From: a virus
Taxonomy: Duplodnaviria; Heunggongvirae; Uroviricota; Caudoviricetes
Direction: 5' to 3' (one strand)
DNA: 4,486 nucleotides
Virus record (IMG/VR): IMGVR_UViG_2630968639_000001
Location: 1-4,486 of that record
Position numbers and translations under genes: made by a program. Below are positions 512 to 4,486 of this stretch, in pieces (positions within the stretch are counted from its first letter, which is position 1; every line of letters begins with the position of its first letter). Below the pieces are notes generated by a model. It did not search any database and was not told where the DNA came from. It worked only from the letters and a program-made list of their open reading frames with translations.

Positions 512-3500
512 TTACATTTTTGCCTTCAGTTCGCGCACTTCCTCGCGCAGCTCTTTGACAGCCTCGACCAACATGCCGATAACGCCGTTGTAGTTAAGAC
601 GCAGACGAGGCTCTCCTGACTGATCGTTATGGTCAACCGTTACCAGTTCAGGCTGAACATTCTGGACGTCCTGAGCGATGAGGCCGCCAGACTGCTCATA
701 ACGGCCACAGACCTGAATCTCGTAGAGAACACCTTCGATCTGCTCCAGCTTGTCGAGCGCCCGCTCAATTTTGCGAATATTGCGCTTACTACGGCGGTCG
801 GAACGGATGTAAACGTCATTAAAACTACCGTTGCCTGCGCAAACCCAAGTGCCGTCGTTCTGGAGATAAGCGGCAGCGTCAGTGCCGTTTGCGGTACGTG
901 AGTTGTTGATCATGTAAAAACCAAACTGACTGTTTCCCAAGCCACCCAAGAAGAATTTGCGATCCGCGTGGTCTTGTCTCAACAACGCTTGTGCAGAGCT
1001 TGTACTTACAGCGTTCCTCCCGAAGATGACGTTCTGGTTACGCATATCTATCCACGCGCCAGAGCCGCTGTTGATGGAAAAACGGTTGGCGTAAACCCAC
1101 GCACTTGACGTGATGTCACCCGTTACACTCAACGGCTTAAGGCTTTGCAGCGTGCTATTAACGAACCTAAAAACATGGGCGCTATTGGCGTAAACATCCA
1201 GAATGCCATCTCCGTTCTGTTTAAAGCCGGTGTCATTGTCACCCAGAACAATGGAATTACCGCCAAGACCATTGACCACACCCAGCCCAAGACCACCGTT
1301 AACAACAGCACCATTGCCCATTGTTACTCTGCCATTAGTGAGATCTACATAAAATGGACGAAGCGAACCTATATCACCATTTTCTCCCTGGTCTTTTGCT
1401 GTCGGGATAAGGTAAAAATTATTTTCGGAACGGCGAAAAATCATCCCGTATGCCGCATCGTAAATGCGTAACCCATCCGTAGAGCGGATCTTAAGCTGTC
1501 CGGACATCGTACCGCCGCTGTTTTTCATAAATAGCGCATCAATCCAGCCTGCAAATCCCGACTTATTAATGTATAAATTTCCATCATTTGCCAGAATGCC
1601 TCCACCTTGCGTCTTGAGGGGCTGACTCACATTTTGCAGCGTCAGCACACCAGTCATTGTTCCGCCAGAAATCGGTAACGCACCGACATCAGCCGCAGTG
1701 GGTTTGAGAGCAGTGTTGTAATCTCTGCGCCAGGCAGGGGCATACGCGCTACCGTGATTAATATAGGTGAACTGAGCACTGGCAATACCACCTCCGGTTG
1801 TCGTTGTAGGCGTAGTAACTCGGATGGTCATTGCGCCTTCGTGACCTAAAACCTCGATAACCGCACCAGCAAGACAAATATTGCCGACACCTGTATCAGT
1901 GATAATTTTATTGTCGGCATATGACCAAGAGCCTTTCATCATCCAATACGGTACGGCGAAAGCACCACGCTCCTTCAGCCATGCGATAAATTCAGCGGTA
2001 GTCCAGTTGCCAGCCCCAGTACTGTATGACGCGCTAAACGTCTGTGCAGCCCCAACATCTTTCGCTGTGGGTTTATGAGCAGTGGTATAGACCTGCGCCC
2101 AACCAGACCAATTCGCTGTCGAAGTATCACGGCGTGAACGAACATAAACCGGTGCATGAGCACCATCCGTTCCGCTCCAGCCAACAAGCATCTCGCCCTC
2201 ACCAGAAGCACTCGCACCTTTCATGTGCAATACGTTGCCATACATGGTCGGGTAGCTATTGTTGTACGCCTCATACATTTGAATGCCAGCAGTGCCTTGA
2301 GTAGAGCCGCTTAACGCCGTAACTCGGCCACGAGATACCAATGTATTAATATTGATATCGCCTGAACCATCAAACTTAACACCATTGATGTTTCTCGCTG
2401 TTTGCAACTTCGTAGCCGTTGAAGCATTGCCATTCAAGCTACCATTTACGCCACCAGTAACATTGAGTCCATTAGCGATCGTAACAGCACCATTGGCATT
2501 GTTAATGATAAGCGGCCTTAAACTATTATAGGTTCCCAGGCTGTTACCCGAATTGGTCAACATGAAATATGTGTTTGAACCATCGTTTCGGATAAAGAAT
2601 CCGTAGCTTCCGTAGGCAATGCGCAGACCATTCGCCGATTTTGAAATGATCTCACCAGTAGCCGTTAAACCGCCGTTGAGATTTCCTCCGGTTATTGGTA
2701 ATGCGCCGACATCCGTGGCGGTCGGTTTAATGTGCGAACTGTAAATGACATATACCGTTCCATCAGTAAGACCAGTTGGTTTATTCGCTGTATAAGTTGG
2801 TGATGTATGAATCGTTACGCTGGCGTTACTGGTATAATCCCACTGAATATTAACACCTGTGGCGTAATTACCTATTTCAACATAAACATCATAGGTATCA
2901 CCGGATGTATTCACCCATGCAAAATTAGTAAATCCAACCGATGTCCGTCGCCATAATGCACCAGTAATACCCTTTGGATTTCCATTTCCGGCACGCAGAA
3001 CCAGCTCAGAGATGCCTGCTTGATGCGGGGAGCCAACGTTATACCCTGCACCACCAATCAGGCTTATGTAAACCACGGAACTGGCCTGTGGCATGGTTAC
3101 AGTTGCCAGCTTGAACCATCCGGCACCACCACTAAAAGATATTGTTGCTGAGTTGATCGTGCCTATAGACCTTGGAGTTAGCTCAATGTTTTTAGAACCG
3201 TCAAACGACACCCCATTAATAGTACGCGCAGTCTGCAACTTCGTAGCAGTAGCCGCATTACCTGTTGTATTCTGATTACCAGTCGTATTAACACCTGGCA
3301 AATTAATATTTGCAGTACCATCAAAGCTCACGCCGCCGATAGTTCTTGCCGTCTGTAGTTTTGTAGCAGTTGCGGCATTACCAGTGGTGTTCTGATTACC
3401 CGTAGTATTTACACCTGGAAGGTTGATATTTGCAGAACCGTCGAAACCAACTCCACCGATAGATCTTGCCGTCTGCAATTTCGTTGCTGTACTTGCATTA

Positions 3501-4486
3501 CCATTTAATGTTCCGGTGATACCACCAGTAACAGACAACGGACCTGAAACTGTTCCTCCGGTTGTTGGCAGTGCTCCAATATCTAACGGCGTCGGTTTCT
3601 GATGTGTGCTATACATCGTATAAACAACACCATAGGTAACGCTGGAAGGCTTACTCGCTGAATATGTTGGCGATGTATAAATAGAAACTGACGCATTTGC
3701 AGTACAATCCCAATGGATATTTACACTCGTCGCATAATTGCCAATTTCAACGTAAATATCATATGTATCGCCGGATGTGTTGATCCAGGCGAAATTCGCT
3801 AATCCGACAGCTGTACGCTTCCACAAAGCACCTGTAATTCCTTTGGGGTTTCCATTGCCTGCTCGTAGAACCAGTTCTGAAATGCCTGCCTGATGTGGGG
3901 AACCGACGTTGTAACCAGCGCCACCAATCAATGCGATGTAAACGATGGAACTCGCTTGTGGCATGGTAACCGTAGCCAGTTTGAACCACCCTGCCCCGCC
4001 AGAGAAAGACATCGTTACTGAATTTAAAGTACCAATATCTTTCGGCGTTAATGTGATATCCGCAGTCAGTGCTTTTCCGTTAACTTTTCGGTTAGATGGC
4101 ACCCTGCTATTCGCATTGTCATTGGCTGCTTTAACTGCTTTTGGCGTTGCGGCCAGCGATTCACTGGTGCTGTCGACAGCACTGCTAAGTTTCACAACAC
4201 CTTTAGTTGTAAGGCTTGCGTCTTCCATCGCAACTGCACCGGCAATCTCTTCAGCACGATCAGCAGCAGCTTCCGCACGGGTCGCAGCGGATTCAGCAGC
4301 AGTTTTGCTCTGAGATGCTGCCGTCGCACTGCCTGCCGCCTCTGTTGCCTTCGTGGATGCCGTCGTGGCGCTGCCCTTCGCTGCTGACGCCTGTCTGGTC
4401 GCCTCATCTTTTGAAGCAGACGCCGATGAGGCCGATGACGCCGCCGAACTGGCGGACGATGCGGCAGCCGTTTTTGAGGATTCTGC
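512..4486 (-). CDS. Side/long tail fibre protein, 5'-partial (N-terminus lies beyond window end); lambda Stf-like N-terminal region, repeated distal modules, C-terminal peptidase S74 intramolecular chaperone domain
   Basis: ORF track gives 1238 aa from ATG 4228..4226 to TAA 514..512. My hand translation of the minus strand over 4229..4486 in the same frame has no stop and reads AESSKTAAASSASSAASSASASSASKDEATRQASAAKGSATTASTKATEAAGSATAASQSKTAAESAATRAEAAADRAEEIAGAVA before MEDASLTT, so Met 4228 is internal. The following motif KGVVKLSSAVDSTSESLAATPKAVK matches the conserved lambda Stf-type motif from memory. KPTxxDVGALP motifs recur four times and ATKLQTAR tail-fibre repeats are present. No convincing SD precedes ATG 4228. 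Confidence 0.93.
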   Translation of the reverse strand, partial: AESSKTAAASSASSAASSASSASASKDEATRQASAAKGSATTASTKATEAAGSATAASQSKTAAESAATRAEAAADRAEEIAGAVAMEDASLTTKGVVKLSSAVDSTSESLAATPKAVKAANDNANSRVPSNRKVNGKALTADITLTPKDIGTLNSVTMSFSGGAGWFKLATVTMPQASSIVYIALIGGAGYNVGSPHQAGISELVLRAGNGNPKGITGALWKRTAVGLANFAWINTSGDTYDIYVEIGNYATSVNIHWDCTANASVSIYTSPTYSASKPSSVTYGVVYTMYSTHQKPTPLDIGALPTTGGTVSGPLSVTGGITGTLNGNASTATKLQTARSIGGVGFDGSANINLPGVNTTGNQNTTGNAATATKLQTARTIGGVSFDGTANINLPGVNTTGNQNTTGNAATATKLQTARTINGVSFDGSKNIELTPRSIGTINSATISFSGGAGWFKLATVTMPQASSVVYISLIGGAGYNVGSPHQAGISELVLRAGNGNPKGITGALWRRTSVGFTNFAWVNTSGDTYDVYVEIGNYATGVNIQWDYTSNASVTIHTSPTYTANKPTGLTDGTVYVIYSSHIKPTATDVGALPITGGNLNGGLTATGEIISKSANGLRIAYGSYGFFIRNDGSNTYFMLTNSGNSLGTYNSLRPLIINNANGAVTIANGLNVTGGVNGSLNGNASTATKLQTARNINGVKFDGSGDININTLVSRGRVTALSGSTQGTAGIQMYEAYNNSYPTMYGNVLHMKGASASGEGEMLVGWSGTDGAHAPVYVRSRRDTSTANWSGWAQVYTTAHKPTAKDVGAAQTFSASYSTGAGNWTTAEFIAWLKERGAFAVPYWMMKGSWSYADNKIITDTGVGNICLAGAVIEVLGHEGAMTIRVTTPTTTTGGGIASAQFTYINHGSAYAPAWRRDYNTALKPTAADVGALPISGGTMTGVLTLQNVSQPLKTQGGGILANDGNLYINKSGFAGWIDALFMKNSGGTMSGQLKIRSTDGLRIYDAAYGMIFRRSENNFYLIPTAKDQGENGDIGSLRPFYVDLTNGRVTMGNGAVVNGGLGLGVVNGLGGNSIVLGDNDTGFKQNGDGILDVYANSAHVFRFVNSTLQSLKPLSVTGDITSSAWVYANRFSINSGSGAWIDMRNQNVIFGRNAVSTSSAQALLRQDHADRKFFLGGLGNSQFGFYMINNSRTANGTDAAAYLQNDGTWVCAGNGSFNDVYIRSDRRSKRNIRKIERALDKLEQIEGVLYEIQVCGRYEQSGGLIAQDVQNVQPELVTVDHNDQSGEPRLRLNYNGVIGMLVEAVKELREEVRELKAKM
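515..802 (-). other. Peptidase S74 / intramolecular chaperone autoproteolytic domain (C-terminal 96 codons of the fibre CDS); predicted Ser/Lys dyad Ser 802..800 and Lys 787..785
   Basis: C-terminal sequence SDRRSKRNIRKIERALDKLEQIEGVLYEIQVCGRYEQSGGLIAQDVQNVQPELVTVDHNDQSGEPRLRLNYNGVIGMLVEAVKELREEVRELKAKM. The S-x4-K spacing and the GxIAQ..PELV...NYNG.IG.L.EA.KEL pattern fit the S74 chaperone domains of endosialidase tailspikes and T5 L-shaped fibre as I recall them. Confidence 0.8.
1295..1495 (-). repeat. Copy 2 of the paralogous 'GLRI...SLRP...NG.VT' module (aa ~912-978)
   Basis: IRSTDGLRIYDAAYGMIFRRSENNFYLIPTAKDQGENGDIGSLRPFYVDLTNGRVTMGNG; protein-level similarity only. Confidence 0.5.
2342..2440 (-). 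repeat. Isolated fourth, more diverged copy of the ATKLQTAR repeat unit
   Basis: Encodes SLNGNASTATKLQTARNINGVKFDGSGDININT (fibre aa ~597-629); nucleotide similarity to the array is visible around 2391-2440 against 3341-3390. Confidence 0.7.
2450..2650 (-). repeat. Copy 1 of a paralogous 'GLRI...SLRP...NG.VT' module within the fibre (aa ~527-593)
   Basis: ISKSANGLRIAYGSYGFFIRNDGSNTYFMLTNSGNSLGTYNSLRPLIINNANGAVTIANG aligns with the copy at 1295..1495; protein-level similarity only. Confidence 0.5.
2681..3187 (-). repeat. Copy 2 of the duplicated module of about 169 codons (fibre aa ~348-516)
   Basis: Protein IELTPRSIGTINSATISFSGGAGWFKLATVTMPQASSVVYISLIGGAGYNVGSPHQAGISELVLRAGNGNPKGITGALWRRT...KPTATDVGALPITGG. 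Plus-strand shadow ORFs 3093..3275 and 3945..4313 both begin MVTVASLNHPAPP, an independent sign of the duplication. Confidence 0.85.
3188..3502 (-). repeat. Tandem array of 120-nt (40-codon) repeats, about 2.6 copies, encoding ATKLQTAR-type tail-fibre repeats
   Basis: Units at 3383..3502, 3263..3382 and partial 3188..3262 encode GNA[AS]TATKLQTAR[ST]IGGV[GS]FDG[ST]ANINLPGVNTTGNQNTT. Blocks 3361-3420 and 3241-3300 align base for base with scattered mismatches. Confidence 0.85.
3551..4057 (-). repeat. Copy 1 of a diverged duplicated module of about 169 codons (fibre aa ~58-226)
   Basis: Protein ITLTPKDIGTLNSVTMSFSGGAGWFKLATVTMPQASSIVYIALIGGAGYNVGSPHQAGISELVLRAGNGNPKGITGALWKRT...KPTPLDIGALPTTGG aligns colinearly with copy 2. 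The nucleotide similarity is visible at an 870-nt offset, for example 3751-3810 against 2881-2940. Confidence 0.85.
4229..4486 (-). other. Ala/Ser/Thr-rich low-complexity segment of the fibre protein (lambda Stf-type shaft region), in frame with and upstream of Met 4228
   Basis: Hand translation codon by codon: 86 codons with no stop, dominated by A, S, T, K and E in short quasi-repeats (SAxxA, AAxSxx). Confidence 0.8.

Follow-up and report, generated by a model that had tools for sequence, protein, structure and literature searches.

How a single tail fibre came to carry two related copies of one module, on either side of a repeat array, is the question raised by the gene examined here, which lies on the minus strand of a 4,486-nt stretch of viral DNA (the window). 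The original prediction had accounted for the pair by an old duplication or by acquisition of two related modules rather than by a recent slip, and had proposed that the second copy provides an extended shaft or a second carbohydrate-binding site, and homology for length-changing recombination. In the reading favoured here, to which a probability of about 0.8 is assigned, the copies are two paralogous knobs, of which module 2, together with the spacer that follows it, was recently recombined in from a pAMPD01-like fibre at linker cores, lengthening the shaft. The features concerned are collected in Table 1.

Table 1. Features of the window, with positions counted from its first base
Feature	Position	Strand	Details
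Tail-fibre gene	512-4486	minus	Stop codon 512-514; 5' end cut by the window; 1,324 codons present
Phage_fiber_2 repeat, single	4094-4216	minus	Upstream of module 1; Pfam PF03406, E 3.3e-18
Module 1	3521-4057	minus	179-codon type-1 knob (predicted jelly-roll); ends in KPTPLDIGA junction motif 3572-3598
Linker array, three 40-codon ATKLQTAR repeats	3188-3502	minus	Tandem Repeats Finder, period 120; repeat search
TATKLQTAR cores of the array	3464-3490, 3344-3370, 3224-3250	minus	
Module 2	2651-3187	minus	179-codon type-2 knob (predicted jelly-roll); ends in KPTATDVGA junction motif 2702-2728
Beta-prism spacer, Gp34_trimer / Mu S type	2444-2650	minus	After module 2; Pfam PF21446, E 1.8e-24
Fourth ATKLQTAR repeat	2345-2431	minus	Core 2393-2419; holds crossover 1 (2400-2416); repeat search
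C-terminal intramolecular chaperone, Peptidase_S74	638-802	minus	Pfam PF13884, E 3.6e-11
Putative autocleavage-type motif, DVYIR^SDRR	791-817	minus	Compared with S16 and fPS gp37 sites
gp38-like adhesin gene, 5' part	1-446	minus	GTG start at 446; AAGGAG ribosome-binding site; runs off the window
Segment nearest to pPEC178_2 and CP059946	up to 2416		~98-100% identity
Segment nearest to pAMPD01	2400-3367		1 mismatch in 968 nt
Segment nearest to Cyrano, pPEC178_2, CP059946 and p2018-11-1BCC_2	from ~3357		96-100% identity
Recombinant tract: module 2, spacer, linker units	2400-3367	minus	99.9% identity to pAMPD01 (CP058309)

The fibre gene, its carrier and its tip

Since the minus-strand frame is open up to base 4486, as seen in both the open reading frame listing and the self-comparison of the protein, the ATG listed at 4228 is not the true start, which lies outside the window; relatives possess ∼377 further N-terminal residues, giving a full protein of ∼1,700 aa. 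The gene at 512-4486 matched PHROG tail-fibre families, and the best DNA and protein matches were to Escherichia phages CMS-2020a and Cyrano and to Salmonella phage SSU5; several hundred non-mobilizable plasmids matched also, with sizes of ∼105-120 kb among the matches listed. On sequence grounds the gene is identified as encoding the tail fibre of an E. coli phage-plasmid of the SSU5-like type, and the original prediction's reference to prophage fibres needs amending, the database relatives pointing to a phage-plasmid as opposed to an integrated prophage as the carrier. Annotated colinear relatives have a TipJ-like (J-like) tail-tip gene upstream of the fibre gene and a lysis cassette (holin, endolysin, spanin) downstream. 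DNA searches found the whole window in no database record. Preceding the Phage_fiber_2 repeat, an Ala/Ser/Thr-rich low-complexity stretch with tandem repeats of 9-21 nt (4229-4486) forms part of a ∼300-residue region in full-length relatives. Module-carrying fibre genes in pAMPD01 (NZ_CP058309.1, 5071-9168) and CP091393.1 are labelled 'short-chain fatty acid transporter', an evident annotation error.

The C-terminus of the fibre matched the S16 gp37 tip (PDB 6f45, E 1.9e-16); published cleavage sites in S16 and fPS gp37 are DVYIR^SDGRLKI and DLNVS^SDRRIKK (PMC7917993), and the DVYIR^SDRR of the fibre agrees with them. The product of the adjacent gp38-like gene matched Pfam GP38 (E 1.1e-40) and Gp38_N (E 4.1e-15), and the gene is annotated in relatives as encoding a 'receptor-recognizing protein'. 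A T2/S16-type tip is thus carried on an SSU5-like fibre; the sisters Cyrano, pAMPD01 and p2018-11-1BCC_2 end in different tips and lack a gp38 gene. Recognition of the primary receptor probably falls to the gp38-like adhesin, and this would dock on the tip once the C-terminal chaperone had been cleaved off. With that adhesin as the probable receptor binder, the modules, situated more than 700 residues upstream of the tip, would be shaft knobs rather than the primary receptor site. The interval between the fibre stop and the gp38-like start contains a perfect 8-bp GC-rich hairpin at 481-500, GGTGAGGG-GCCA-CCCTCACC (minus strand), with no T-run after it.

Two diverged modules and the linkers between them

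Alignment of the two modules proceeded without gaps over 179 codons, slightly longer than the ∼169 codons first proposed, and placed the copies in colinear order, 290 codons (870 nt) apart and with zero indels, essentially where they had been predicted on the minus strand. The strongest self-diagonal of the protein lies at an offset of 290 residues, with 39 of 40 residues identical in the best 40-residue window, and a repeat search independently returned the 870-nt spacing, so that the significant diagonal expected of such a pair is present. The three 40-codon ATKLQTAR repeats lie between the copies, as had been envisaged. The two modules share 77% identity as proteins (137/178; BLASTP E 3e-104) and 69.6% as DNA, with identities at the first, second and third codon positions of 80%, 88% and 40%. 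Synonymous sites are saturated (Nei-Gojobori pS 0.74), dN is 0.17 and dN/dS ∼0.05; in one 30-residue stretch the proteins are 100% identical with just 33% identity at third positions. The C-terminal third is the most divergent part (57-63% aa identity). Given the identity, the saturated pS and the low dN/dS, the similarity between the modules is far above chance, their divergence is old and both have been under strong purifying selection.

A fourth ATKLQTAR repeat, absent from the original prediction, lies beyond module 2 and its spacer. The linker array alone matched nothing in Pfam, and in the PDB the repeats yielded just one motif match, a non-significant one (E 0.18) to the C-terminal portion of the Dec protein of phage L. 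Assignment of the repeats to Phage_fiber_2 was considered and rejected, as the repeat segment gave no PF03406 match at E up to 1, the sole match in the gene being to a different motif at 4094-4216. A second junction motif, KPTxxDVGA(LP..GG), occurs four times after successive knobs (3572-3598, 2702-2728, 2048-2074 and 1679-1705). Blocks of homology to two relatives, L002 and L007, begin and end at KPTxxDVGA motifs, and the block at 2049-2729 is bounded by those at 2048-2074 and 2702-2728.

The notion that the linkers are 'recombination adaptors', conserved as nucleotides beyond the constraint on the protein, was also discarded: third-position identity in the linker cores is 0.39, versus 0.60 in a conserved module stretch, and the 13-codon core exists in 27 distinct DNA versions among 54 linkers. 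Since the linkers display no extra nucleotide conservation, crossovers would appear to exploit protein-driven homology as opposed to a dedicated DNA signal.

Efficient RecA-dependent exchange usually requires roughly 20-30 nt of identity. Since the longest exact match between the window's two modules is 11 nt, the modules are poor substrates for deletion, and the proposal that they supply homology for length-changing recombination is not borne out. Length changes occur instead at the linker repeats, judging from the crossover mapping and from the representative P0070 (both described below). The fibre of plasmid p2018-11-1BCC_2 presents a different case: its modules share a 47-nt exact patch (codons ∼556-575 and ∼846-865) that includes a rare F-A-Q variant in both, and module 1 leaves its own class exactly there, while the same stretch in the window's modules has many synonymous differences. 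By its sequence, the patch looks like a short gene-conversion tract between diverged copies.

Mosaic structure and the source of module 2

A protein query with module 1 matched 303 places in 298 phage records and 472 places in 458 plasmid records, indicating that one copy per genome is the rule; the single-copy variants that had been anticipated not only exist but are the norm. They reside in T-even gp37, in Felix O1-like fibres, in ST64B-like and lambda-like prophage fibres, in Yersinia myophages, and in P1-like and SSU5-like phage-plasmids. A representative search of 1.84 billion proteins gave 264 matches at E <= 0.001, of which 205 were retrieved for module counting; 156 of the 205 contained a near-full module and just 2 of these 156 contained two. 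Representatives with matches in several stretches were not multi-module fibres, the extra stretches comprising only the ∼30-residue KPT..GAL junction motif. One record labelled as an Enterococcus phage, OR844957.1 ('Enterococcus phage Efm 3-10', 1,843 bp), has a module with a percentage identity to the query equal to that of Salmonella ST64B-type fibres, and is likely to reflect contamination or mislabelling.

Relatives of module 1 have identities of 92-98% and then of 78% or less (one partial alignment reaching 84%), whereas those of module 2 range from 99% down to 81%, and by these sequence identities the two are placed in separate classes. The same order of module 1, linkers and module 2 was found in one of 5,426 complete E. 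coli genomes, on plasmid p2018-11-1BCC_2 (NZ_AP027904.1), which matches the window over 2,134 colinear nt at 94.3% and has a different distal end; three plasmid records and phage CMS-2020a carry both modules further apart. P0070, a 791-aa fragment and one of the two two-module representatives, has module 2, the beta-prism spacer and two ATKLQTAR linkers as a unit of 317 residues that is repeated in tandem with 100% aa identity. This points to a very recent duplication by unequal crossover, unless assembly produced it; in the former case unequal exchange at the linkers would generate true recent duplications as well. The two places per record in P1-like plasmids were rejected as tandem duplications, being inverted alternative ends of an invertible fibre segment with a recombinase gene adjacent. 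In the P1-like plasmid NZ_JBWLLS010000002.1 (locus 1-7624), for example, the module-2 cassette appears twice, inverted, in alternative fibre ends that flank tail-fibre assembly genes and adjoin a recombinase gene, as in a P1-type invertible segment.

Maps of sliding-window identity and of mismatches, drawn against the relatives, defined three segments with different nearest relatives (Table 1), crossover 1 being placed by mismatches to pPEC178_2, CP059946 and pAMPD01. At linker cores one nearest relative gives way to another, the flanks and the tract having no single shared history; the crossover intervals, 2400-2416 and 3357-3367, both fall within TATKLQTAR-core codons (2393-2419 and 3344-3370). 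No exact direct repeat in the window exceeds 14 nt, and the one of that length, at 2403 and 3234, is the ATKLQ-coding core. The pAMPD01 fibre has module 2 only, with an unrelated knob in module 1's place, and a P1-like phage-plasmid fibre (L009) likewise has module 2 only; module 1 alone is found in pPEC178_2, CP059946, Cyrano and the relatives L006 and L007. The closest relatives across both flanks, pPEC178_2 and CP059946, lack 831 nt of the window. Within the tract, the core at 2432-3194 has 99.9% identity to pAMPD01 and ∼97% to many plasmids of ∼90-118 kb, including one confirmed to be P1-like. At the amino acid level, module 2 is 99.4% identical to its counterpart in pAMPD01, 97.8% to that in the P1-like phage-plasmid fibre and 88% to those in Yersinia phages vB_YpM and phage JL22. 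Each copy thus has relatives of 95-99% identity in single-copy fibres, compared with 77% to its partner. Because the tract that holds module 2 has 99.9% identity to a fibre without module 1, and the flanks correspond to fibres with module 1 only, sequence comparison shows that the modules did not arise by duplication within this gene. Of the origins initially offered, the acquisition of two related modules is retained and an old duplication in place is not; that the pair is no recent slip is upheld.

An ancient tandem duplication in this lineage, with the copies kept by purifying selection and single-copy relatives derived by deletion, could feasibly yield copies that are colinear, in frame and indel-free, with saturated synonymous sites and low dN/dS. 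Perfect tandem duplication of the same cassette is seen elsewhere, in P0070, and types 1 and 2 do need some deep duplication or allele divergence in the history of the family. Such a duplication is nonetheless improbable as the origin of this pair, since it leaves unexplained the near-identity of the module 2 tract to a fibre with a different knob at module 1's site and the change of nearest relatives in the flanks exactly at linker cores; moreover, each type is abundant alone in unrelated groups (T-even, Felix O1-like, lambda-like, P1-like and Yersinia myophages), and pPEC178_2 is no simple deletion derivative, its third linker being just 78-82% identical to that of the window. More improbable still is an artefact of assembly, in which the fibre genes of two co-resident phage-plasmids were mis-joined at shared repeats to give a chimeric contig. 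Both junctions do lie in repeated sequence, where assemblers err, and no database record contains the whole window, but the putative parents share just ∼17 nt at junction 1, less than usual assembly k-mers, and the reading frame is intact across 1,324 codons. In addition, the complete plasmid p2018-11-1BCC_2 independently has the layout, and the four other records noted above carry both modules further apart.

Under the favoured reading of recent recombination, the recipient would have been a fibre already equipped with module 1 and an S16/T2-type tip, and the donor a pAMPD01-like fibre that contributed module 2 and the beta-prism spacer of Mu S / T4 gp34 type. Both crossovers lie within TATKLQTAR-core codons of the 40-residue linker repeats, and the outcome, relative to single-module fibres, is an in-frame gain of 277 residues. 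The module 2 cassette circulates among P1-like phage-plasmids also.

Predicted fold and comparison with known fibres

The module matched no Pfam family and, by sequence, no solved structure; its PHROGs matches were to tail-fibre or unknown-function families only. An AlphaFold2 model of one module as a monomer, based on a 39-sequence alignment of diverse representatives, is all-beta (pLDDT 92.4, pTM 0.84) and is predicted to be an eight-stranded jelly-roll, that is, a beta-sandwich of tailspike type. Foldseek comparison with predicted viral structures recovered the module fold in gp37-type fibres and EPS depolymerases. In WceF, residues 531-667 form an eight-stranded jelly-roll sandwich, one per chain, after a short triple beta-helix (PMC7949094), and from the aligned length this would be the domain matched by the module model. 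Both copies are paralogous members of a widespread family of ∼175-residue jelly-roll beta-sandwich fibre domains without a Pfam entry. In the trimer, each chain would form its own sandwich, such that a module would appear as a three-lobed nodule on the shaft.

The 69 residues that follow module 2 are, by phmmer, very similar to residues 268-340 of the Mu tail fibre S (5yvq, E 2.7e-29) and homologous to residues 1034-1122 of T4 gp34, a solved fold. The whole fibre matched PF21446 in three stretches (E 2.1e-32), and the fibre gene matched 5yvq (E 2.1e-72) and 4uxe/5nxf (E ∼1e-20) in the PDB. By these domains shared with solved fibres, and by the position of the locus in annotated relatives, the protein can be placed in the shaft class of T4 gp34/gp37, P1 S and Mu S.

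As regards function, the original suggestion of an extended shaft or a second carbohydrate-binding site fits the predicted lectin-like jelly-roll fold of tailspikes. The main effect of module 2 and the spacer would be a longer fibre, with 277 more residues in each chain; they may also provide a second glycan contact of low affinity. A bolder alternative, that the modules are functional receptor-binding lectin domains with different glycan specificities, selected for dual or broadened host range, seems unlikely: the fold does resemble tailspike and depolymerase beta-sandwiches and, weakly, galectins and CBMs, and the copies do diverge most in their C-terminal third, but receptor binding more probably lies with the gp38-like protein at the tip. 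The placement of the modules as shaft knobs is accordingly preferred. Similarly doubtful is a broader proposal, namely that the modules constitute an undescribed family of lectin-like shaft knobs, that ATKLQTAR and KPTxxDVGA form a plug-and-play grammar by which phage groups trade, stack and convert knobs, and that the two-knob state is selected. If true, the grammar would span T-even and Felix O1-like phages, lambda-like prophages, and phage-plasmids of the P1-like and SSU5-like kinds, and selection would favour two-knob fibres for an additional glycan contact or for tuned fibre reach.

The locus exemplifies an ordinary, well-known mode of tail-fibre evolution and entails no new mechanism or principle. 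What it adds is a well-resolved example from a phage-plasmid, two junction motifs and a domain family that has yet to be characterized: the rebuilding of a shaft can be read at base resolution, with a 968-nt cassette moved via crossovers within a nine-codon linker core to leave two homologous knobs. A widespread fibre domain of ∼175 residues, without Pfam model or solved structure, is flagged, and the ATKLQTAR and KPTxxDVGA motifs may serve as natural in-frame junction points for the engineering of chimeric fibres. The case also shows that SSU5-like and P1-like phage-plasmids, which are carriers of resistance genes in enterobacteria, take their fibre parts from a common stock.

That tail fibres swap segments at short conserved motifs is a classical observation in T-even phages, P1, Mu, P2 and lambda, and Tetart, Desplats and Krisch reportedly described in 1998 tail-fibre exchange by 'recombination between conserved motifs'. 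Shuffling of protein fragments in phage receptor-binding proteins has been described recently (PMC10684548). The present fibre resembles T-even gp34/gp37, P1 S and Mu S in having exchangeable domains with short conserved motifs between them, at which the breakpoints lie; a Gp34_trimer-type spacer is common to it, to Mu S (5yvq) and to T4 gp34, and some T-even gp37 proteins contain related modules. Unlike in T-even phages, the motifs are the 40-residue ATKLQTAR linker and KPTxxDVGA, as opposed to His boxes or the glycine-rich motifs of gp38, and unlike in the T-even, Mu and P1 S cases the carriers are SSU5-like and P1-like phage-plasmids and one shaft holds two copies of the same family. For the modelled jelly-roll, the comparators are WceF (6tgf) and the C-terminal sandwiches of Acinetobacter phage tailspikes (6c72, 8oq0 and 5w5p), with which the module has 11-14% sequence identity and no detectable sequence homology; whereas the WceF-type sandwich is C-terminal to an enzymatic beta-helix, the domain in the window is internal to the shaft and present twice.

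The tip is akin to that of Salmonella phage S16 and T2 (6f45; PMC7917993) in its Peptidase_S74 domain, its gp37-tip match, its cleavage-type motif and the gp38-like gene directly downstream. This likeness concerns the tip and not the modules, and the element that carries the fibre is a phage-plasmid, not a T-even phage. In the T4 gp37 adhesin, duplicating a small domain is said to expand host range (Tetart and colleagues, 1996). Common to that duplication and the present case are a repeated domain in a fibre protein and unequal recombination between short motifs, as in P0070 likewise; the copies examined here differ from it in that they are 30% diverged in DNA, were joined by exchange between different fibres, and lie away from the receptor-binding tip.
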